19,719 nt of DNA from Bdellovibrionota bacterium (GTDB taxonomy: Bacteria > Bdellovibrionota_C > UBA2361 > JBIKWN01), in NCBI GenBank assembly GCA_044356295.1, contig JBIKWN010000048.1:1-19719 (forward strand). Direction: 5' to 3'. How positions within the stretch are numbered: the first letter of the stretch is position 1; each line of letters begins with the position of its first letter. Below the pieces are notes generated by a model, which did not search any database, was not told the origin of the DNA, and saw only the letters and a list, made by a program, of their open reading frames with translations. The translations under genes were made by a program, and so were the position numbers. Of the stretch, positions 75 to 13,556 are shown one piece after another.

Positions 75-1607
75 CTATCGGACAATAGTGCCCAACACCT
101 GCTCGGAAATAACTATACTCTGGGCAGCAGTACCATTAGCAGAGGGCTCAGGGGATTGTCTGGTGAGTCGTAAGAGCTTGAATTCAGCCATCAGGGGATA
201 TGTTTTTTTTAGATATGAAAAAGTATGGTCGATAAAATCCCCCGGTGCATAACCAGGAAAGCGAGAGTTCCATTCAGACCTAAGATATGAGTAATCTGAA
301 GGCATGGCAAAGTAACTTTCAAGTTTATCTGAATTGAATTCACTTCCTTTATCAAGGTCTATCCATATTGATGAATTTTTAGCTCTTCCTAATCGCACAT
401 ACATGTAAACTGTAGTCGGTGCATCAAATGAGAACATCCTCCAATGTTGTGGGATTCTTAAATACTGTATTAAAAATTGATTATATTGAGGAAGTGACCA
501 TGACGGCTCCCTGCCACCACTCATCCAAGATTTATAAGAATACAAAGAATGGATGAAGACATGCGAAATAATCATCACTGATAGAATACCAGTTACAATA
601 TGAGCAATTTTTGAAGAATTATTTTTTTCTACTCGGTTAATATCTGATGATTGGATCTTTTTATCATTAAAAATGAGTGCCCAAAAATAATTTGGTACTA
701 CAAGTATCGATAACGACATCATCACAGGGCTAAAAGGACCAAGTATCAGACAGAGTCCAATACCAAAATGTAAAAATAAAATTACACATGCTCCTATAAG
801 TCGAAATATAAAGGAATAAAACGGAAATAAAATAAGGATTGGCAATGCCCCTTCTAATATCAATACAGTTCGACTTAAAATCTGTAATAGCGAGAAAGAT
901 ACATAGTCACGAATGAGCACACCTATAAAAGTCACACGATCTGGAATCCATAAACTATAATATAGTGCGGTTCCTGTTTGCCATGTTACGCCAGTTTTTG
1001 TTAGGAAATTAAAAGTGTAAATGACTGCTATTGATACAAGACATCCTGCAAAAGCAATTGATGAGCCCAGTGAGTCAGAAAGATCCTCTTTACGCTTTAC
1101 CAAGGGTTTATTCAGAAACATTGGCAGCGAAAATGTGAATCTTTTATCGGTTGGAAGAAGAATAGTCCAAAGTAAAATGAGGTGCAGGACAATTGTTCCC
1201 CCGTTTTCTAATAAAAGGTTTCTGTTATTGATTGAAACCGAACAGAGCAAGGTAAGCACTTTAATCCACACACCTCCGATCCCACAGGTAAATAAAGCGA
1301 ATAAAATTGTAGAAAACAGAAAAAAGAGAATCACTTCATTTGGGGAACTGAATGCATCTAGAAACGAGAAAGCATAATCAACACTTGAAAATAACTTATA
1401 ATGATTAGGGAAAACCCCATTATTAGTATAAAATTCTTTGTAGTGAAAAAATCGAGTCAATACATCAGTCAGCAGAATACAACCGATACTGATTCTAAAT
1501 AGTGCTAATGCCCGCAGATCAAAAAAACAGTATCGATGATACAGAAAAGACAGTATCTTTCTTAAAAAGTGAATACTATTTTGGCTAAAACTACTCATAC
1601 ACTTCAT
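75..1607 (-). CDS. HTTM-domain polytopic membrane protein (SdpB / vitamin K-dependent carboxylase-related), with a C-terminal QxWxMF segment
   Basis: 510-aa ORF with many hydrophobic helices. Motifs DLRALALFRISIG, FYTNNGVFP, NRNLLLENGG, WQTGTALYY, LFLHFGIG and PQHWRMFS are typical of bacterial HTTM proteins. Confidence 0.8.
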   Translation of the reverse strand: MKCMSSFSQNSIHFLRKILSFLYHRYCFFDLRALALFRISIGCILLTDVLTRFFHYKEFYTNNGVFPNHYKLFSSVDYAFSFLDAFSSPNEVILFFLFSTILFALFTCGIGGVWIKVLTLLCSVSINNRNLLLENGGTIVLHLILLWTILLPTDKRFTFSLPMFLNKPLVKRKEDLSDSLGSSIAFAGCLVSIAVIYTFNFLTKTGVTWQTGTALYYSLWIPDRVTFIGVLIRDYVSFSLLQILSRTVLILEGALPILILFPFYSFIFRLIGACVILFLHFGIGLCLILGPFSPVMMSLSILVVPNYFWALIFNDKKIQSSDINRVEKNNSSKIAHIVTGILSVMIISHVFIHSLYSYKSWMSGGREPSWSLPQYNQFLIQYLRIPQHWRMFSFDAPTTVYMYVRLGRAKNSSIWIDLDKGSEFNSDKLESYFAMPSDYSYLRSEWNSRFPGYAPGDFIDHTFSYLKKTYPLMAEFKLLRLTRQSPEPSANGTAAQSIVISEQVLGTIVR

Positions 1608-1663: not shown

Positions 1664-3070
1664 ATGGGGCTAAAAATCACGAAACGTCAAAAGAGTATAC
1701 TGATAAGTATCTTCTTGATTACCAGTATCTGGTTACTAGCGGTTACCCCTATATTTAGAATTCCGGTTGTAGGAATTGCGGATAATGGGGATTTTTATAG
1801 GGTTATAAACCCAATAGGATTAGAAAAAATAGGTGGTCGCGAAAGTGGCGACCCAGTACTGCTTACAGAGTACTCAAAACAGAGGCCTATTTTTCGTCGA
1901 CTTTCATCTACGGCAAGTATAGTACCCTTTTTTATAAAGGAATTTCATACATTTCTGTTTGGCATAAGTAAGAACTTAGATATCCAGATTCTTGGAATAA
2001 CACTTTCGATTCTATTCCTGTTCTGTATGCTATTTGCTCACTTTTATCTGCTTATTCCAATTTCGACAATTGGTGTGATCTGTTTTATCTTCTCGGATCC
2101 AAGTTACCTACTCTATCTAAATAGTTTCCTTTCAGAAGGAACTGTTTTTATCAGTTTATTTTTATTAATCTGCTTTTTGATTTCCCACCGTCAAAAAAAA
2201 TCTAAACTGCTTCTCTATTTTATTTTCTTTATTTTTCTTTTTACGAAACATCACTTTGCAATTCTTGGATTACCTTTCTTTGTTTTTTATAGCTTACTAC
2301 ACCGCAGAACAGATTATGGGTTGCTGGTTATTGCTCTCGTAGCTCTTTATTTTTCATTCATTTCGCTCAATCAATTTAGAAAGATCAATATTTTTCTGCC
2401 TAATGCGTTCAATCGATTCGCATCCGGTCCTGCAGCCCTCAGTGACAATCCCACAAAGATACTTATAAACCTTAATCTAAAACCAGAATATCAAAAATAT
2501 GTAAATGCTAATTTCTGGTCACTCAATCTTGCAGATAATAATACGAGTGTTGAATTAAAAGAGATTATTAAAGTACCAATACACGCAATTGCTTTTGAAT
2601 ACTTCAAAGACTCTTCGGTTTTATCAAAGATTTCAGTCAAAGCTCTGGATGCAGTCGCTTTCAGTAAAATTTACACCGCTGCGCACTACTCTGATGTAAG
2701 TCACCCCCTGGAAAGATTTAGACGAGCCATTAGTTTTCGAGACTTTCTAGAAGAATGTTTCTCGAAGTATAAAATAACAACTTGGCTGATACTGATGTTC
2801 TTTGTTTTTTCTGCATTCTGTATCTCAAAAAGACGCATTCGTTATAGTATGGTCTTTCTTTCCTTATCAACGTTACTGATTGTTTCATCAAGTATTCTTG
2901 GTGATGGGCTTTGGGATTTTGAACGACATACTCTGTTGGCAAGGTTTTGTTTTGATATCCTGATAGGCTTATCAATCTATAGTATAATGCAGCACTGTTA
3001 TTATTATTTTTCCTCTACAAGATTCATTCACCAAAGAAAGTTTCTAAGAATTACGGAAGAAAAAGGCTAA
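1664..3070 (+). CDS. WsfD-like polytopic membrane protein, putative GT-C fold (lipid-linked sugar) glycosyltransferase
   Basis: 468 aa with many TM segments. GIADNGDFYRV in the first external loop and YLLYLNSFLSE resemble the WsfD-like family as I recall it. Confidence 0.6.
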   Translation: MGLKITKRQKSILISIFLITSIWLLAVTPIFRIPVVGIADNGDFYRVINPIGLEKIGGRESGDPVLLTEYSKQRPIFRRLSSTASIVPFFIKEFHTFLFGISKNLDIQILGITLSILFLFCMLFAHFYLLIPISTIGVICFIFSDPSYLLYLNSFLSEGTVFISLFLLICFLISHRQKKSKLLLYFIFFIFLFTKHHFAILGLPFFVFYSLLHRRTDYGLLVIALVALYFSFISLNQFRKINIFLPNAFNRFASGPAALSDNPTKILINLNLKPEYQKYVNANFWSLNLADNNTSVELKEIIKVPIHAIAFEYFKDSSVLSKISVKALDAVAFSKIYTAAHYSDVSHPLERFRRAISFRDFLEECFSKYKITTWLILMFFVFSAFCISKRRIRYSMVFLSLSTLLIVSSSILGDGLWDFERHTLLARFCFDILIGLSIYSIMQHCYYYFSSTRFIHQRKFLRITEEKG

Positions 3071-6000
3071 GCTTCCAAGCTAATGTTTCAAAACTTTTTA
3101 AATCCTCGATATCATGACCACCTTGATAGAGATAACTTACCGTGTGTGGTTTTGTATATGCTGGATCGTATTGCCCTCTGACGGTAAGAATCGGAATTTT
3201 CTTTGATTCTGCTAAAGCCTGCAAAGCGCCTTTATCATTACCAACTTGGTCGATGATTGCATCAACAGCGATTCCTTCTTCTAATAGAATTTTTTGTATT
3301 TTATTGCCATAAGAAACTGAATAGCTGACAATTTTTTGATAGTTGTTATGAGTTGCATATTTTTTGACGGCTTTAATAGTAGAAGCTAAAGCTTCTCGAT
3401 TAATACTTTTCTCGAACTTTTTTCCGTAGCCAATCGATCCTGGGTAATTTACCGCCAATACACGGTATCCTAAATTATTAAGCAGATGAAAATATGGGTT
3501 ATATCTTGGCGAAACATTTTCGTTTGGTCCTCCATGCCACCAAACAATTAATTTTTTTAGTGATGGATCGCCAAAAAGCCATGCTGGAATTGTTTCACTC
3601 TTGGAATCAGTTGGAATTTCAACAGCATTGATAGCGATTTGTTGATGAACCGGCCGATCAACAAGGAACTCCCATGTAGAGTCATTACCTAAACGACCGA
3701 GAGTTCGTGGATGGGTACTGTCTGAAATAATTCCGTAAATATCTTGATCAACTTTTACTGCACTATAAACAATAATATTTTTATCAGATTTATATTTAGA
3801 AGTTTCAATCCAATAGAAAGAACGATCTGCAAAACGCTTAAAATCTTGATTGGTATCAAGAAGGTCGAAATCTTCTTGTTCTCGAGCTGTGGCAGTAAGT
3901 TCAATAACCCCAGTTTCTTGCAAATTAATTGAGAAGGATCCCACTCGATCATCTGTTATACCTCTGCCTGTCAAACCGAAAGTGCCATCGGGAAGTGTAA
4001 AGATTTCACGCGCATCTGTTAAATTTTTTAGATTGTTTTCAGTGCAATCATTTTTATGATCATTGCCATTACAAATTATTACAATTGGATTCGTTCGAGC
4101 ACTCTTAATCCCTGCAAATACACCTTGATTGTTGATTGCGCAAAGATCAAAACTCTCAATGGCAACAGTCGAGTCAAGTTGTCGATCCATTGAACTACCA
4201 AGATAGGTGATAACTCTTGAACCATTTTCCTCAAAAGAAATTTTTCTTGAATGTGAATTAAGGCAAATCTTTCCAGTATCAGAATTGCCCTTGTTAATTT
4301 TTGTTAATTCAGTTGTGGCTTTATTATAAACATATAAATTATTTGATTGAGCTTGTGTTGAGACTGATAGGAGCAATACGTGTTGTTCACTCAAAGCATC
4401 AATGACCATCAAATGAGAATTACTGAAATCCAAAGAGGCAGGGATTTGCAATGGAAAAATTTCATTTTTATAATAAACCTTAGGGCGCATGAGCCCATTT
4501 TGATCTGTTTGTGCAAAAAGAACTTTGCCATACCAGTTGATTACTTTACTCTGGGATTTTTTCCATTCTATTGGAATAACGGCATCATCAAAAAAAAGAT
4601 GAGGACATTGTACGAGATAATTTTTAAGTGAATTCTTGGTTTCGTATGAAAGTGCATAAAAAGAAGCAAAAATTTCTATCTGCCTTATCAATTGCTGCGA
4701 GCATTCTTTTGACGAATTAAGTAGAGTTGTAAATTGCTGATTTGCTTCTGCACTATCCCCTGTACGGCTCGCATGAACTGCAGAAATTTCATACGTCGAA
4801 TATTGCTTGGGAAAATAACGCTTCTGTTGTTCAACTAGGGATTGGGCTTCGCTTGTCTTGTTCAGGTTAAGAAACTGATGAAGCTGTTCAGTAACTTTTA
4901 CATTGGTCCAATCCCAATATGTTTTGACTTCGTAAGTTTCATACGGATTTTTATCTAGTTTCGAAATTTGGTTTAATGCAAGAATCCGCAAAGGCATCTG
5001 ATAAAAACACAGACAGATAAATACGACTCCGGTTGCTTTTGCTACATACCATCTTGCTTGGCTCGCAATATTGAATTTTTTTTCAACAAGAAACGTAAAG
5101 ATTAAACAATAAATAATTAAACTTATTAATCTACTTGAAATAGGCTCTGAAAATGCCTGTATACTGACAGCAAATAAACTCAACAATAGTAATGCTTTTT
5201 TTGTTGTAAGCTTCTTCCATCGTAGCAGAATTGCAACTGGCGTAATCAAAAAGAACGTCAAATAAGCCAATCCTCCAATGATTCCTAATTCAACAAAATA
5301 CCTCAGGTATTCATTCATCACGACATTAAAAGACCCCTTGAGTATTCCAAATGAAGAATCAAGAGATAAATCAGAAAGCCTAATTACCAATTGTTTAGCG
5401 CCTATTCCAGTCAAAGGGGATTCATAAAAAAACTGTAATGTTTTCTGCCAAATTAATAGTCGCCCACTCCATGCTGATGGATTAAATATTGAAGTTAGAC
5501 TATTGGTATAGGGACTTGCTGAATTCCAATGTAAGAAATCTTTTAAAGAAAACGCCAAAAGAACAGTACTGATTCCAATGAAACAGATCCCTCTCCTGTG
5601 TTTTTGGCGATAAAAGAGTTTACGAAGTGACGGAATAAGAACAAACATTGCAAAATAAAATGCAAGAATTACCCACCCAGATCTGCATCGAAAAAGTACA
5701 ATACAAACAAGAGACAAAATAATATTTAAACTTGTCCAGAGTCGAATAAAAAAACTTCGTGATAGCAGAAGGAGATAGACACCCAGTGGCAATGCTTGAA
5801 GTAGGAATAAAACAAGTTGATTTCTAAATCCAAACGCTGAACCAAGCCAATCACCACTCACTATTGAGATTGGCATATAAAACCTATTAATAAACATCAA
5901 CAGCAACAAAAGCGTTACAGTAAAATTTATTGAGTAGATGACACCAAGTAAGGTGAATTTTTTCTGTTCAATAAGAATAATAATAGAAAGCAACAGTAAC

Positions 6001-6260
6001 CAGATTCCAATTTCATCAAGTACTAATCCAGGATTTGGAATATTGAACAATTGAAGAAATAATTCACCAACTATGAAATATAAAGGAAAAAGAAGGATCC
6101 ATGGCACATATTTATACCTTGGTCTTATTTCAAAAAAACTTACTATGACAAAGGCAGAGGTTAAGAGGCTCAGTGCGATGAAACGGTTGCTAGCTAAAGC
6201 TTGAAATCCTTGGAGATTAAGTAAACTACCAAATAAAATAAGGATTAGACTGTAAAACAA
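3051..6260 (-). CDS. Fusion of an O-antigen ligase (Wzy_C)-like membrane domain, a helical TPR-like region, a beta-rich (propeller-like) region and an S9-type alpha/beta hydrolase
   Basis: 1069 aa, TTG start. The first ~420 aa are polytopic, with FGFRNQL, RCRSGW, SGRLLIWQKTLQFFYESPLTGIG and MNEYLRYFVELGIIG. The C-terminus has LIVWWHGGP (H909), GYRVLAVNYPGSIGYG, SVSYG (S983), GQYD (D1032) and GGH (H1049). Confidence 0.8.
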   Translation of the reverse strand: MFYSLILILFGSLLNLQGFQALASNRFIALSLLTSAFVIVSFFEIRPRYKYVPWILLFPLYFIVGELFLQLFNIPNPGLVLDEIGIWLLLLSIIILIEQKKFTLLGVIYSINFTVTLLLLLMFINRFYMPISIVSGDWLGSAFGFRNQLVLFLLQALPLGVYLLLLSRSFFIRLWTSLNIILSLVCIVLFRCRSGWVILAFYFAMFVLIPSLRKLFYRQKHRRGICFIGISTVLLAFSLKDFLHWNSASPYTNSLTSIFNPSAWSGRLLIWQKTLQFFYESPLTGIGAKQLVIRLSDLSLDSSFGILKGSFNVVMNEYLRYFVELGIIGGLAYLTFFLITPVAILLRWKKLTTKKALLLLSLFAVSIQAFSEPISSRLISLIIYCLIFTFLVEKKFNIASQARWYVAKATGVVFICLCFYQMPLRILALNQISKLDKNPYETYEVKTYWDWTNVKVTEQLHQFLNLNKTSEAQSLVEQQKRYFPKQYSTYEISAVHASRTGDSAEANQQFTTLLNSSKECSQQLIRQIEIFASFYALSYETKNSLKNYLVQCPHLFFDDAVIPIEWKKSQSKVINWYGKVLFAQTDQNGLMRPKVYYKNEIFPLQIPASLDFSNSHLMVIDALSEQHVLLLSVSTQAQSNNLYVYNKATTELTKINKGNSDTGKICLNSHSRKISFEENGSRVITYLGSSMDRQLDSTVAIESFDLCAINNQGVFAGIKSARTNPIVIICNGNDHKNDCTENNLKNLTDAREIFTLPDGTFGLTGRGITDDRVGSFSINLQETGVIELTATAREQEDFDLLDTNQDFKRFADRSFYWIETSKYKSDKNIIVYSAVKVDQDIYGIISDSTHPRTLGRLGNDSTWEFLVDRPVHQQIAINAVEIPTDSKSETIPAWLFGDPSLKKLIVWWHGGPNENVSPRYNPYFHLLNNLGYRVLAVNYPGSIGYGKKFEKSINREALASTIKAVKKYATHNNYQKIVSYSVSYGNKIQKILLEEGIAVDAIIDQVGNDKGALQALAESKKIPILTVRGQYDPAYTKPHTVSYLYQGGHDIEDLKSFETLAWKLSLFLP

Positions 6261-6273
6261 TCAACTGTGACAA

Positions 6274-6447
6274 TTATGGAGTTATTACTATCCGTTCATC
6301 CACAGATAAGGTCACAGCAAAACCACCAAATGTGGCAAGTAAAACTTGAGGAGCTTCGTAAGCAAGGACTGGAGATGATTGTGTCTCAAGTGAAGAAGTA
6401 TCTTTCAGTTCTTCTTGTACGAATTTTGATTTATCTGAATCTGCCAT
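6274..6447 (-). CDS. Putative RiPP-type precursor peptide, 57 aa: MADSDKSKFVQEELKDTSSLETQSSPVLAYEAPQVLLATFGGFAVTLSVDERIVITP
   Basis: Small ORF on the same strand as, and between, the modification genes. It contains YEAPQV (6343-6360), matching the YxxPxL RRE-recognition motif. I prefer ATG 6447 to GTG 6477 because a -35/-10 pair overlaps the upstream extension. Confidence 0.7.
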   Translation of the reverse strand: MADSDKSKFVQEELKDTSSLETQSSPVLAYEAPQVLLATFGGFAVTLSVDERIVITP

Positions 6448-6455
6448 TACCTTGA

Positions 6456-6485
6456 ATAGTACACCCAAGATATCCACGGTATCAA
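6456..6485 (-). promoter_or_regulatory. Putative sigma70 promoter for the precursor peptide gene (probably leaderless)
   Basis: Minus strand reads TTGATA (6485-6480), 18 nt, TACTAT (6461-6456), 8 nt, ATG (6447). There is no properly spaced Shine-Dalgarno. Confidence 0.55.
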
Positions 6486-6531
6486 GAGAAAAAATGTAAG
6501 GTTTCCGCCTATAAACATCTAGAAAAACAAC

Positions 6532-7785
6532 CTATGTCCTAAGAAACTGACTAATGTGTAAGGTTACCGGTCTATTGAATTCATCGAAAGCATTGTAACA
6601 CTCTAATATTTTAAGCTCTAAATCCTCAATGTTTTGGATCTGGTTATCTCTCAAACAATTGAAATTTGGCAGTTCTAAAATACGACAACTGACCTCAAAA
6701 AGCTTCTCTTCAAATTTGTAACTTTGAGAACAGGTGGTTTCCTTCAATAAATCTTTGCGACTCAAAACTTCTACCATTGTTTGCTGTCCAACAGTTGCCT
6801 CATAGGCAAGAGATAACAAGCTCAGATCTGCAATTAACTTTTCAAGTTCGGAATAATATTTCTCCCTCTTAAGAAAGAAAAATGGGTATTTACTCGTCGT
6901 TAATTTCTTGTAGCGCCTTACTATCGAAAATAGCTCATCAAGCAAACCAAAGCATTGATCGTGTACCGATTGATTTATAACTATTGAATTAATTAACGAC
7001 TGCAGTCGAGTATTTTGAATATCACGTTCAAAAGATTTCCTCATGAATATTGACGTTGCAAGAATATCTTCGAGAGCATTTTCGAAAAAAATGTAAGGCG
7101 GATCAAATAACGGGATTTTTTTAGCAGCAGAAGAAGCCCAGTGGGAAACTTCTTGATACAATCTATTGGCTTCGTTTAGATCAATTGTTGAAGGCAGAAT
7201 AATTGTCAAATCAACATCAGATGAACCTGGAATAATTTCCTTATTCGCATATCGAGAATGAAAATGAAAAATTCCAATATTTTTCTTTTTACACAAAGAT
7301 TCTACATTAAACTTAACAACATCAAGCAAACAGCTCCAAAAAAAGCGAGCAAAACTATAATACTTGAACAAAGAAAAAAACTTTATTAAAAGAGCTTTAA
7401 TTAGTTCTTTAACAGGTTTTAGAATTTTATAACAAAATTCAATGCAGCTCTTGTATGTTTGATCTCTATTGGTTGCCTTCGCTGGAAAAACTCTGCCGAT
7501 ATACATCGATGCCATCACTGGCGGATCTTCATGATGTGATTTTAATGAGCTTGTAATAATTTTTTGGTCTTCAATTCTAACAAACTGATGCCAAATCATT
7601 ATTTGATCACGAATGATAGCAATTATCATTCCTGGACTGAGCTCACTCAGAGGGAATTTTTCAATAAAACATATCTCTGACCGTATGAGTGATGGTTCCA
7701 TACTATCACTCATGACTGGTGCATAAATCCGCTCACCAGAGAAAACTCTTCTTTGGACCTCAAGTAAGATCTGAATCTTTGTCAC
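6532..7785 (-). CDS. S24/S26 (signal-peptidase-like, Ser/His) peptidase domain fused to a Pol-beta-type nucleotidyltransferase domain
   Basis: aa 1-100 contain VMSDSMEPSL (S28), LSPGMIIAI, WHQFV (H66) and EDPPV...YIGRV. aa ~170-200 contain FHSRYANKEIIPGSSDVDLTII (D190, D192). The GTG start overlaps the upstream TAG (TAGTG). Confidence 0.7.
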   Translation of the reverse strand: MTKIQILLEVQRRVFSGERIYAPVMSDSMEPSLIRSEICFIEKFPLSELSPGMIIAIIRDQIMIWHQFVRIEDQKIITSSLKSHHEDPPVMASMYIGRVFPAKATNRDQTYKSCIEFCYKILKPVKELIKALLIKFFSLFKYYSFARFFWSCLLDVVKFNVESLCKKKNIGIFHFHSRYANKEIIPGSSDVDLTIILPSTIDLNEANRLYQEVSHWASSAAKKIPLFDPPYIFFENALEDILATSIFMRKSFERDIQNTRLQSLINSIVINQSVHDQCFGLLDELFSIVRRYKKLTTSKYPFFFLKREKYYSELEKLIADLSLLSLAYEATVGQQTMVEVLSRKDLLKETTCSQSYKFEEKLFEVSCRILELPNFNCLRDNQIQNIEDLELKILECYNAFDEFNRPVTLHISQFLRT

Positions 7786-9230
7786 TACACCAATACCCCA
7801 ATGTTACGAAGATTTTCAGTAAGCAAAGAAAAATCGTTAGCGATGACTCCTTTATCAATATTATACTTTTCACTCGTGGTATTAATCGTAGTTTCTGCAT
7901 CTTTGGTTGAAAGATAGGTCAGAAGCATGAATCGCGCAGTGTGATTAAGTGTAAATCCAGTATTTCCTAGAAGATCTTTTTCATTCCACGCCACGATTCG
8001 AACAATTTCTGGAGTAATGGCAATTCGAAACGCAGCTTGTAAGAGAGTTGGCGTTTGAGATGGAATGCTACTTAGCAAACAATCTTTTTTGATACGTTTC
8101 TCAAAAATAGATGAAATCCACCACCCAATCCAACGCGTTATATGGGCAACAAATGAAAAAAGATAATCTTTGTTCAAAGCTTTTGGTAACGAAGGAAAAG
8201 AGAACCCCCAATAGGTAGGCGCTACGATACCAAGTGAAGGGAGCCACTTTTTAATCATACGTCTATCCCAATACGCTTGTCTAAAAAGTGATCCAAAATA
8301 TCGATATAGGGAACTATGTCCAAGATCTTTGGTAATGACCTCAGCGATGAATGCAATGCATCCACCGAAGTTCAAACATTGAAAACTAAGATCAACATCC
8401 TCCGACCTGCCTAAGGTGGTATCAAAAAATATGTTATTATCAATTAAAAAATCTTTCCGAATCATGACAGCAGCTGTATCGAAAAATGGGATCGGCAATC
8501 TCTTTGCATTTGCAAATCCTTTTATAGACCAATGATTCATCTGATCATGATGTGTTTTTAAGATTCCTCGACTCAAAATTGCTGAGTACTGAATGGCTGA
8601 CTGAACAGCTACAATTTCATCAAGTTCAAACCCAGATAAAGTTTTCTCTATCCATTGTCTTCCAAGTTGAACATCACTATCTATAAAAGCAATAAATTTT
8701 CCCCTTGCAGCTCGAAGTCCCCTATTTCGTGCATATGAACGTGATTTTCTTTTTTCATCTAATATAATCACAGGATATTTAGAAGCCAGAAAAGATGTCC
8801 TATCAGTTGAATTATTATTTACAACAATGACTTCAAAGTGATGTTTTGTTTCTTGATTAAAAATGGATTCAAGGAGTGCTTCTATACTAGCTTCAGCATT
8901 AAAAGCTGGAATGACGAATGAAATAAATGGGTTTATAGGTGATCTAGCTAACATGTTAGCTTTATAGAGTTGAAATAAAACATCAATTAAATCATTTTGA
9001 ATTGATTCTTTATCAACAGTCGGAAATTGAGTAATTAAGAACTCAAGAATTTTATCTTGAGTTCCATATGTTTGAATTAAGGTTGGAAGGTGTGACCAGA
9101 TCCCTGTTAGCGTAATTGTTTTTCCGCCCTGGAAATGAATAATTTCAACAGTAGTATCATCTTTGCTGAAATAGACATCCGGATGAAGAATAAAGCCATG
9201 CTTGATAAAATCGAACAGACTTTTCTTCAT
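7785..9230 (-). CDS. GT2 glycosyltransferase flanked by N- and C-terminal PqqD/RRE-like domains
   Basis: GT2 core: ISFVIPAFNAEASI, EVIVVNNNSTDRT, ARNRG, FIAFIDSD, RSEDVDL. aa ~12-95 (LHPDVYFSK..TLTGIWS..ESIQNDLIDVLFQLYKANML) and aa ~405-481 (FTLNHTARFML..EKYNIDKGVIANDFSLLTENLRNIGVL) follow the three-strand/three-helix PqqD pattern. Confidence 0.8.
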   Translation of the reverse strand: MKKSLFDFIKHGFILHPDVYFSKDDTTVEIIHFQGGKTITLTGIWSHLPTLIQTYGTQDKILEFLITQFPTVDKESIQNDLIDVLFQLYKANMLARSPINPFISFVIPAFNAEASIEALLESIFNQETKHHFEVIVVNNNSTDRTSFLASKYPVIILDEKRKSRSYARNRGLRAARGKFIAFIDSDVQLGRQWIEKTLSGFELDEIVAVQSAIQYSAILSRGILKTHHDQMNHWSIKGFANAKRLPIPFFDTAAVMIRKDFLIDNNIFFDTTLGRSEDVDLSFQCLNFGGCIAFIAEVITKDLGHSSLYRYFGSLFRQAYWDRRMIKKWLPSLGIVAPTYWGFSFPSLPKALNKDYLFSFVAHITRWIGWWISSIFEKRIKKDCLLSSIPSQTPTLLQAAFRIAITPEIVRIVAWNEKDLLGNTGFTLNHTARFMLLTYLSTKDAETTINTTSEKYNIDKGVIANDFSLLTENLRNIGVLV

Positions 9231-13161: not shown

Positions 13162-13294
13162 ATGCATCAAAACTTTTTCATAAATCTTGTATGTCTGAGG
13201 ATTAATTTAGATCATAATGAAGGCAAACAGCGAGATCCTATCCACGTGCATGTACTAAATATTGGAGGCTTGGAATGAACACTTCAAATCTTGA
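13162..13294 (+). pseudogene. Internally deleted, frameshifted DUF4160 remnant
   Basis: The frame from ATG 13162 gives ...NEGKQRDPIHVHV (to 13254). The +1 frame at 13259-13294 gives ILEAWNEHFKS*. These are the N-terminal and C-terminal hallmarks of DUF4160, with the middle missing, directly upstream of DUF2442. Confidence 0.7.
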
Positions 13295-13556
13295 TGCTTT
13301 AGCAAAAGCAGTAACTTTTGACTCAGATAATTTTTGGGTAGAGCTTGTAGATGGTCGACAACTCGGCGTTCCACTTGCTTATTTCCCTCGTCTTGCTAGA
13401 GCATCCAGCGCTCAACGTAAAAAATATATCATTAGCGGAGGCGGAATTGGACTTCATTGGGATGAGTTAGACGAGGATATTTCAGTACCCGCTCTCCTTA
13501 TCGGTAGAGTTGATCAAACTACTCAAACCACTAAACGCAAGAAAAGAGCTGCTTAA
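13275..13556 (+). CDS. DUF2442 domain-containing protein (putative antitoxin of a DUF4160/DUF2442 pair)
   Basis: WVELVDGRQLGVPLAYFPRL and GIGLHWDELDEDISVPALL; GGAGG at 13264-13268 upstream of the ATG. Confidence 0.9.
   Translation: MNTSNLDALAKAVTFDSDNFWVELVDGRQLGVPLAYFPRLARASSAQRKKYIISGGGIGLHWDELDEDISVPALLIGRVDQTTQTTKRKKRAA

Follow-up and report, generated by a model that had tools for sequence, protein, structure and literature searches.

We analysed a 19,719-nucleotide stretch of DNA, contig JBIKWN010000048.1 of a Bdellovibrionota bacterium (assembly GCA_044356295.1), referred to here as the window, and within it a short open reading frame (ORF) that encodes a peptide of 57 residues. The ORF follows two longer genes of the same strand, the first of which encodes a glycosyltransferase (GT) whose GT2 domain is flanked by two domains of the PqqD type, and the second a fusion of a signal-peptidase domain with a nucleotidyltransferase (NTase) domain (Table 1). 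Domains of the PqqD type serve as recognition elements (RREs) for the precursors of peptides that are made by the ribosome and modified after translation (RiPPs). The stop codon of the GT gene overlaps the start of the peptidase–NTase gene, a spacer precedes the peptide gene, and the next gene begins 14 nt past the peptide stop. The peptide gene is the last conserved gene of this operon, and it probably encodes the precursor, that is, the substrate, of a three-gene RiPP-type pathway.

Table 1. Features of the peptide operon and of the gene adjoining it, in window coordinates.
Feature	Position	Strand	Basis
Precursor peptide gene (probable), 57 aa	6274..6447	minus	ATG 6447, stop TAA 6274–6276; translation, codon score, homologues L004:5301–5489 and P0003
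Y30-E-A-P-Q-V35, putative RRE-binding leader motif Y-x-x-P-x-[VLI]	6343..6360	minus	Y30 and P33 invariant in 6/6 aligned peptides
G41-G42-F43-A44-V45-T46, candidate cleavage region; T46 candidate modification site	6310..6327	minus	G42 invariant in 6/6, F43 position F/L in 6/6; putative function
L47–P57, variable C-terminal tail	6277..6309	minus	four of the 9 differences from P0003 in residues 52–56
Spacer of 84 nt between peptidase–NTase gene and peptide gene	6448..6531	minus	weak sigma-70-like match 6485–6456; AAGG before the ATG
Peptidase–NTase fusion, 417 aa	6532..7785	minus	N-terminal archaeal/SipW-type signal peptidase (S28, H66, D87); C-terminal Pol-beta-type NTase (S189, D190, D192)
RRE–GT2–RRE glycosyltransferase, 481 aa	7785..9230	minus	PF00535, PF05402 and TbiB1 profile matches, AlphaFold2 model
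Wzy_C (O-antigen-ligase-like) membrane domain with S9-like peptidase, 1069 aa	3051..6260	minus	Wzy_C 3.9e-12; Peptidase_S9 0.002, below cut-off

Results

The peptide gene

The open frame spans positions 6274–6477 of the minus strand and contains the whole of the peptide. A preliminary description of the ORF had listed an acidic, Ser/Thr-rich N-terminus, the motif Y30-E-A-P-Q-V, the stretch LLATFGGFAVTL, the tail SVDERIVITP and the absence of Cys, and all of these are found in the translation, in which 13 hydrophobic residues (V35–L47) stand behind the acidic N-terminus. The codon usage of the ORF is gene-like and the frame looks coding. Scored in frame with codon tables built on 1160 long ORFs of its genome, it has a codon log-likelihood of 0.448 per codon, against 0.329±0.111 for 57-codon pieces of real genes (n=1160); only 0.21% of 5800 wrong-frame pieces matched or exceeded this value, and the antisense ORF (6267–6455) scored −0.055. 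We conclude that the 57-codon gene is real. It is single-copy within its own genome. The peptide had no family match in scans of Pfam and NCBIfam, and a search of the ESM Atlas gave no usable match. A scan of the whole genome for the leader motif returned five matches, one of them the peptide itself and three in frames of 296–759 codons; the sole other match in a short frame, on contig C66, was rejected, as it lies antisense within a gene for 647 amino acids.

Gene calls in public data begin further upstream, at GTG 6477 for one record (P0002, 67 amino acids), while another (P0003) has 81 amino acids. In the window, the additional N-terminal residues of P0003 fall in another frame, which stops at the ATG, and the homologue on a related metagenome contig (L004, described below) begins at a Met aligned with ATG 6447. 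The upstream stretch is therefore not constrained in frame and is a spacer, so that ATG 6447 is the likely start codon. A one-base difference in the length of a T-run upstream of the ATG appears to separate P0003, which is recorded at the protein level, from the window. AAGG stands 3 bases ahead of the ATG, and there is no strong Shine–Dalgarno sequence; since this genome seldom uses one (a Shine–Dalgarno-like 4-mer is present in 291 of the 1160 long ORFs), the weak AAGG is no argument for or against the gene. Promoter-like matches in the spacer region occur at the rate of chance (3 found, 3.3 expected), neither of two spacers has a significant RNA fold (no better than shuffles), and an Rfam scan of the window gave no match. 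A terminator-like match inside the ORF (6336–6322) was rejected because its 5-bp stem is not credible.

Window DNA was found in 16 sequencing runs, of which 15 are lake-water or freshwater metagenomes and one is labelled only 'metagenome'. The reads of four runs over the window yielded short contig pieces identical to it, with no variants.

The enzymes of the operon

The GT matches PF00535 over residues 104–262 (2.5e-28), a region that contains the putative active-site motif D184-S-D186, and, at its C-terminus, the PqqD family PF05402 (2.5e-07, residues 423–479); the same C-terminal residues match the lasso PqqD family NF033530 at 8.5e-07. Its N-terminal 95 residues form a second RRE, as a profile built from four such N-termini had TbiB1 (5V1U) as its top match (E 0.0018). 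The profile of the C-terminal domain, searched against sequences of the Protein Data Bank (PDB), matched TbiB1 at 1.9e-10 and TfuB1 at 1.8e-4. The two profiles also align with each other (63% probability, E 7e-5), and the AlphaFold2 (AF2) model of the GT (mean pLDDT 65) has four strands and three helices in residues 13–90. Judged by profile similarity, both RRE domains are thus nearest, among proteins of solved structure, to TbiB1, the leader-binding protein of a lasso peptide pathway. In NCBIfam, the best match of the GT is MftF (TIGR03965; 1.7e-22), at 79.9 bits where the cut-off is 280, and with the SunS family (TIGR04195) it reaches 18.8 bits, the cut-off being 350. Four homologues of the GT were found, at 44–47% identity, one of them on contig L004. 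A scan of genome contigs with the GT alignment gave only distant GT2 genes (22–27% identity), mostly from Ignavibacteria-type metagenome-assembled genomes.

The 417-amino-acid protein encoded by the second gene matched no Pfam family at E≤0.01, and its sole NCBIfam match was to the archaeal-type signal peptidase I family (TIGR02228, 20.1 bits). A member of the same protein family, P0127, scores 62.3 bits on this model, above the cut-off. Twelve residues are invariant in all 13 aligned proteins (S28, M29, P31, H66, D87, P89, G97, G187, S189, D190, D192 and P225), and by alignment these cover the Ser-His-Asp set of the predicted peptidase and the Pol-beta-type D-x-D of the predicted NTase. In the AF2 model (pLDDT 81.3), which has an N-terminal helix at residues 3–15, residues ~17–102 match SipA, LexA, E. 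coli signal peptidase I and human SEC11C (VIA-align Z 8.1–9.3), and residues ~150–370 match the aminoglycoside adenylyltransferases ANT(3'')(9), AAD(9) and ANT(4') and also GlnE at middling scores (Z 6.1–7.4 overall, 6.5–7.4 for the ANT-type enzymes). Foldseek on the same model recovered only the S24/S26 domain and nothing at E≤0.001, and the ESM Atlas gave weak leads only (0.81 to NTP_transf_2 clusters).

A profile search of 1.84 billion representative proteins with this family gave 1071 matches at E≤0.001, three of them at E≤1e-30. Most are proteins of 110–270 amino acids that cover the first ~100 residues only, and all five of the short matches scanned (P0129–P0133) have an S24/S26-type peptidase domain. 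Among the matches listed, eight proteins of 550–680 amino acids match beyond the peptidase domain, and four have both an S24/S26-type domain and NTP_transf_2; in P0221, PqqD, peptidase and NTase are joined in one chain. Fusions of the same domain to other tailoring modules were also noted, with a methyltransferase and NTP_transf_5 in P0159 and with radical SAM/SPASM in P0172. The fusions in these two proteins and in P0221 suggest that the SipW-type domain is a widely reused, soluble leader-peptidase module. Between the window NTase domain and the PF14907-type domain of P0159 no match was detectable, and no PF14907 (NTP_transf_5) match was found in the genome. The 417-amino-acid protein was not found in 60 relatives from the order, and scans of metagenome and genome contigs with the peptidase–NTase alignment returned no relative.

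Relatives of the peptide and of the operon

Among 5.8 billion clusters the peptide has a single relative at 84% identity, P0003. The 9 differences lie at residues 20–25, 36 and 52–56, and residues 1–19, 26–35 and 37–51 are identical. A more distant counterpart is found on contig L004, where the order of genes is that of the window: MiaB, a BFN-domain protein, a 157-amino-acid protein, GT, peptidase–NTase and then an ORF of 62 amino acids (5301–5489). The product of this ORF is 33% identical to the window peptide. Their Smith–Waterman score was 57, compared with 23.5±4.6 for shuffled sequences (z 7.4; none of 5000 shuffles scored as high), and the peptide frames were the best of the 36 frame pairs between the two intergenic regions (62; next 46). 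The three close peptides have in common M1, D5, K6, Q11, E13, T17, S19, V27, Y30, P33, Q34, F40, G41, G42, A44, T46 and P57.

The two loci differ in how far their parts have diverged. The flanking MiaB and BFN-domain proteins are 82–88% identical between the window and L004, as against 47% for the GT, 38% for the peptidase–NTase and 33% for the peptide (window 6274–9230, L004 2611–5489). Going by these sequence identities, the peptide operon would either evolve much faster than its neighbours or have been exchanged or replaced at a fixed chromosomal site; an operon at 33–47% identity beside flanks at 82–88% is in keeping with the rapid turnover that has been reported for systems of this kind. 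The DNA of positions 5700–7000 was not found in two genomes of the same genus (62% and 86% complete). On L004, an ORF of 315 amino acids (5680–6627, minus strand) is convergent with the peptide gene, and its product has a Cys-rich N-terminal part followed by several dozen tandem Thr-Asn-Gln repeats.

Elsewhere in the phylum, 4 of 123 genomes have peptidase–NTase fusions of 633–717 amino acids; these four are all of the same class and come from three genera. At one of these loci (L024) a GT2–PqqD fusion lies directly upstream of the peptidase–NTase gene, and its GT matches MftF at 1.5e-32 (113.1 bits, cut-off 280). At another (L025) a discrete PqqD protein, whose best NCBIfam matches are lasso PqqD chaperones, overlaps the start of the fusion. 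The remaining two (L022 and L023) have as neighbours an ABC-2 transporter pair that adjoins the peptide, an HprK-related protein (a weak match, E 9.7e-4), a PMT_2-type glycosyltransferase and a GT2.

Each of the four loci has, beside these genes, one ORF of 52–64 amino acids with Y-x-x-P-x-[LVI], 5–7 further residues and G-[GF]-x-[AF]. In six-frame translations of the four loci this motif (Y..P.[LVI].{5,7}G[GF].[AF]) was seen 4 times where shuffles predict 0.08, and a looser form 7 times against 0.585. Shine–Dalgarno-like sequences precede the small ORFs of L023 and L025, and a weaker one that of L022. In the L024 candidate (7584–7778, plus strand) the conserved Thr is the last residue: it stands right after a G-G-F-F block and just before a TAG stop, and next to nothing comes after the leader-like part. 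In an alignment of six peptides M1, Y30, P33 and G42 are invariant, and the block around the glycine reads hydrophobic-x-G-[F/L]-x-x-[T/S/N]. Beyond the position equivalent to T46 the relatives have tails of 0 to 28 residues, whose sequences are unrelated.

These comparisons bear on what had been proposed for the peptide. The YxxP motif, whose absence from syntenic ORFs would have counted against a precursor, is kept in the L004 ORF and in the small ORFs beside each related peptidase–NTase gene found. Of the three hydroxyl residues put forward as modification sites, T46 is conserved (T, T and T in the close set; T, N, T and S in the distant one), and S48 and T56 are not. The likeness of the leader to that of lasso peptides, which we take to follow the consensus YxxPxLxxxGxxxxxTx quoted in the preliminary description, is approximate in its spacing: counted from Y30, the glycine pair is at +11/+12 and not at +9, and T46 at +16 and not at +15. 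The other half of that proposal, a core that is not of the lasso type, agrees with what we see. A core beginning after T46-L47 would be SVDERIVITP, with D3 and E4 and nothing acidic at positions 7–9, and the reading as a lasso ring fails. With YxxP conserved, both RREs nearest to TbiB1, weak support from complex prediction, no B2 peptidase found in the genome search and no cyclase in the window, the idea of an RRE-recognized precursor with a lasso-type leader and a non-lasso core is supported.

Neighbouring genes

The Wzy_C–S9 gene that follows the peptide gene in the window has no counterpart behind the peptide gene of L004. The complete fusion was detected in none of 123 further genomes of the phylum, where its halves match separate genes, and its product is possibly a local accessory outside the conserved core. 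Further along, a WsfD-like glycan hexose transferase is encoded at 1664–3070 (plus strand; NF051875, 122.7 bits, cut-off 80) and a multi-pass membrane protein of 510 amino acids without a family match at 75–1607 (minus strand). Together with the Wzy_C gene these look like a small envelope-glycan locus beside the peptide operon. On the other side of the operon, a DUF2442 gene (13275–13556, 93 amino acids, 5.8e-22) is the sole plus-strand gene in a long minus-strand run of housekeeping genes.

Comparison with known peptide pathways

Linear polyphosphorylated peptide (LPP) clusters, with the genes LppA/K/B/S/D/N, were described by Popov et al. (Nat Commun 2026; PMC13381572), in whose available text, on which all statements on LPPs below rest, they are said to be restricted to Bacillota. 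Their precursors carry the motif YxxPxVLxHQxIxFETxxS, the YxxP class being the one that the RREs of both lasso and LPP pathways bind. LppS, a SipW-like peptidase, cuts after T-1 and only with LppB presenting the leader; it requires S29, H68 and D93, its N-terminal helix contacts the RRE–leader sheet, and leader residues F-3 and L-10 are important to it. In the core, S3 is polyphosphorylated, and LppN had no detectable effect in a heterologous host. LPP clusters are also located within polysaccharide loci.

Because the S26 domain of the window is of the archaeal/SipW type, which in LPP pathways was shown to be an RRE-dependent RiPP leader peptidase, we place the locus beside the LPP family (PMC13381572). 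Like an LPP cluster, it resembles a lasso pathway without a cyclase, with a YxxPx[V/L] leader and PqqD-type RREs. The predicted catalytic residues of its peptidase (S28/H66/D87) correspond by alignment to S29/H68/D93 of LppS, and the N-terminal helix modelled at residues 3–15 has an apparent equivalent there. Variable C-terminal cores and adjoining genes for glycan biosynthesis are further points of likeness, and the nucleotidyltransferase in the set may be another. There are also differences. The locus has neither the HprK-like kinase, which makes the defining modification of LPPs, nor an MsbA-like exporter. Its RREs are two copies flanking a GT2 domain and not a discrete protein like LppB, its peptidase is fused to an NTP_transf_2/ANT-like NTase, and its host is not a member of the Bacillota. 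Past YxxPxVL the leader reads F-G-G-F-A-V-T where LPP leaders have HQxIxFET; in a gapless alignment from Y30, the window peptide agrees with the LPP motif at Y, P, V, L, F and S48, which makes 6 of the 11 positions specified, and the L004 peptide agrees at 2 of 11. In the whole genome (93.6% complete), no match to PF07475 (Hpr_kinase_C) was found, and TIGR04352 reached only 16.9 bits, on another contig.

From lasso systems (TbiB1–TbiA, PDB 5V1U/5V1V; TfuB1, 6JX3), to whose B1 proteins and YxxPx[L/V] leaders the locus is closest in its recognition parts, it differs in having no cyclase and in a core incompatible with a ring of 7–9 residues, as well as in the distance from the Tyr to the Gly and Thr noted above. 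No match to PF13471, the transglutaminase core of the lasso B2 peptidase, was found in the genome, and matches to the Asn-synthase family PF00733 are only on other contigs (C82, C51 and C70).

Glycocin cores are Cys-containing helical hairpins, and their double-glycine leaders are cut by peptidase-ABC transporters. Glycocin pathways of the SunS/ThuS type offer an analogy, in that a GT2 enzyme glycosylates a ribosomal peptide, as the window GT might. The SunS match of the GT is, however, far under its cut-off, the peptide has no Cys and the window encodes no peptidase-ABC transporter. The set of mycofactocin genes is not present either: the MftF match stays at 79.9 of the 280 bits called for, and the operon has no radical SAM maturase.

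The tailoring modules of paeninodin- and pseudomycoidin-type lasso peptides (HPr-type kinase, PsmN-type NTase and GT2), as described in the available part of PMC7533575, are similar in that PqqD, NTase and GT2 surround a peptide with a lasso-type leader, and in that a Ser/Thr hydroxyl close to the C-terminus is the expected site of modification. Those modules, however, act on a lasso, whether finished or nascent, and need the kinase, and here there is neither lasso nor kinase. Fusions of an RRE to a PF00535 glycosyltransferase, as in the window GT, were flagged by RRE-Finder as lying outside known RiPP classes, and the main-text passages, supplementary figures aside, give no precursor, peptidase partner or experiment for them (PMC7470986, PMC12710340). 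In the literature found, to which the supplementary figures of RRE-Finder do not belong, no RRE–GT2–RRE gene is described together with a peptidase–NTase operon.

Discussion

The above results are best explained if the 57-codon gene encodes the substrate of the two enzymes upstream of it. In the mechanism that we propose, the leader (Y30-x-x-P33-x-V35) would dock as a strand on one or both PqqD-type RREs of the GT, as homology to the lasso proteins implies and as complex prediction faintly suggests. The docked peptide would then be presented to the GT2 domain, which may glycosylate a hydroxyl, with T46 as the best candidate, since no other Ser/Thr past the leader motif is conserved. A nucleotide or a sugar-phosphate may be added by the ANT/GlnE-like NTase domain. 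The peptidase domain, of the SipW type and with a Ser-His-Asp set, would by analogy with LppS remove the leader within F40-G-G-F-A-V-T46, and the product would be a short, linear, Cys-free peptide, glycosylated and/or nucleotidylated. Most likely, to the extent that the available account of LPPs (PMC13381572) allows comparison, the locus works like an LPP pathway yet lacks the kinase that defines the class, and is a sugar-adding relative centred on a glycosyltransferase.

Three registers of cleavage may be considered, all by analogy. Cleavage after the invariant G42 is the one we favour, with a chance that we put slightly under even: it would place an invariant Gly at −1, a hydrophobic residue at −3 in all six peptides and the conserved T/S/N at position 4 of the core. 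Cleavage after T46, which we consider distinctly less likely, would give the T-1 of LppA and mostly a small residue at −3, and would leave the L024 peptide without a core. Cleavage after V45 is unlikely; it would keep the spacing of LPPs (F at −3, as in LppA, and S48 at +3) and leave L024 a single residue.

A number of observations weigh against the peptide being the substrate of these enzymes. Structure prediction of the GT in complex with the peptide gave weak support: the median ipSAE was 0.59 (runs 0.56, 0.72 and 0.59; best of three controls 0.00), with runs agreeing in at least 44% of contacts and a partner pLDDT of at least 39. Of 157 solved complexes, 116 reach the mark that this score passes, as do 2 of 215 mismatched pairs; at 0.60 or below, it is reached by 18 of the 157 and by both of the passing mismatches. 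Because a solved complex of TbiB1 with its leader exists, the pass may reflect likeness to that complex. The structural matches of the GT2 domain are generic (wall-teichoic-acid and polysaccharide glycosyltransferases), and the peptide is a putative acceptor. The window peptidase domain, with its 20.1 bits, does not reach the TIGR02228 cut-off of 51.85; in place of its SSL, [KR]-[GA]-[DE] is seen in 12 of the 13 sequences aligned, and the NTase has H-S where distant relatives have G-S. No kinase, cyclase or ABC exporter was found among the 19 window ORFs scanned, and of these the kinase and the exporter would be expected of an LPP-like pathway. None of the 16 sequencing runs that contain window DNA is an RNA run. 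The comparison with P0003 is one of proteins. The motif of the small ORFs at the four distant loci was defined after the ORFs had been seen, and two of these loci (L022 and L023) are from the same genus and not independent. The distant candidates are not picked up by a hidden Markov model built on the three close peptides (the best of them ranks 6th, E 5.7, among 1804 six-frame segments), and their kinship therefore rests on the post hoc motif together with position. For the L024 peptide, finally, T-1 cleavage would leave no core and G-1 cleavage four residues only.

The peptide might instead act as a scaffold or primer and never be set free as a product, with a sugar or sugar-nucleotide built on its C-terminal region and passed to the envelope-glycan machinery (Wzy_C–S9, WsfD-like), or with a small molecule cut out of it as in mycofactocin and PQQ biosynthesis. 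MftF is the best NCBIfam match of the GT in both the window and L024, the L024 peptide terminates at the conserved Thr, the Wzy_C-family gene and then the WsfD-like gene follow the peptide gene closely, and LPP clusters too are found within polysaccharide loci (PMC13381572, available text). Both MftF scores are, however, well under the cut-off, and the window encodes no radical SAM maturase, MftD or MftE, its sole radical SAM protein being MiaB. In addition, the Wzy_C–S9 gene is missing from L004, and the 7 of 124 genomes that match it do not include the four others with a peptidase–NTase fusion (G071, G083, G084 and G090). We consider this explanation quite unlikely. It is improbable, too, that the gene encodes a small membrane-associated or regulatory protein that is no enzyme's substrate and has V35–L47 in the membrane. 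Such a role would suit a hydrophobic stretch behind an acidic N-terminus and a gene that adjoins one for a large membrane protein, but 13 residues are too short for a typical membrane helix, and the equivalents at L022–L025 are polar, with E, N, G, S and K between YxxP and the Gly. Hydrophobicity is thus not what has been conserved; the conserved feature is the RRE-type motif.

A chance ORF in an intergenic spacer, never translated, would be short, have no family match, lack a strong Shine–Dalgarno sequence and find no usable match in the Atlas (recognition value 1518), all of which apply here. This is nevertheless very improbable, given a codon-frame score in the upper range of real genes, synteny and a motif that are both conserved in L004, and a motif-bearing small ORF at each of the four related loci; Shine–Dalgarno sequences, moreover, are rare in this genome. 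The least probable explanation is a lasso precursor served by a cyclase and a B2 peptidase from genes outside the locus. The YxxPx[VL] leader, RREs nearest to lasso B1 proteins and Asn-synthase-family genes on contigs C82 and C51 would agree with it. The Asn-synthase matches, however, are frames of 593–665 amino acids on other contigs, with no RRE match found, and a genome 93.6% complete has no PF13471 match. Moreover, the core after T46-L47 has its Asp/Glu at positions 3–4 and none at 7–9, and the L024 relative has no residues past the Thr.

If the peptide is indeed the precursor of the operon, the system may, tentatively, be the first example of a separate class of RiPP that is independent of a kinase. 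In such a class, a two-RRE GT would O-glycosylate a conserved Thr four residues past an invariant Gly, the ANT-like NTase would add a second group, and the soluble SipW-type peptidase would release a very short linear peptide (of four residues in one relative). The product might pass to the O-antigen-ligase-like/S9 membrane protein and so be joined to the cell envelope. This is a doubtful proposal in its full extent, and we offer it as such.

LPP-type pathways, which pair an RRE with a signal-peptidase-like leader peptidase, had no description before 2026, and according to the available text of that paper their final products and roles are unknown (PMC13381572). The present locus would place an LPP-like logic of recognition and cleavage in a freshwater Bdellovibrio-like bacterium, without the kinase and with a glycosyltransferase wired to two RREs. 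If the chemistry is as we infer, three genes would be enough to reconstitute leader-guided glycosylation of a peptide. This would help in understanding the super-family, and the operon could be used as a compact tool for glycosylation directed by a leader.

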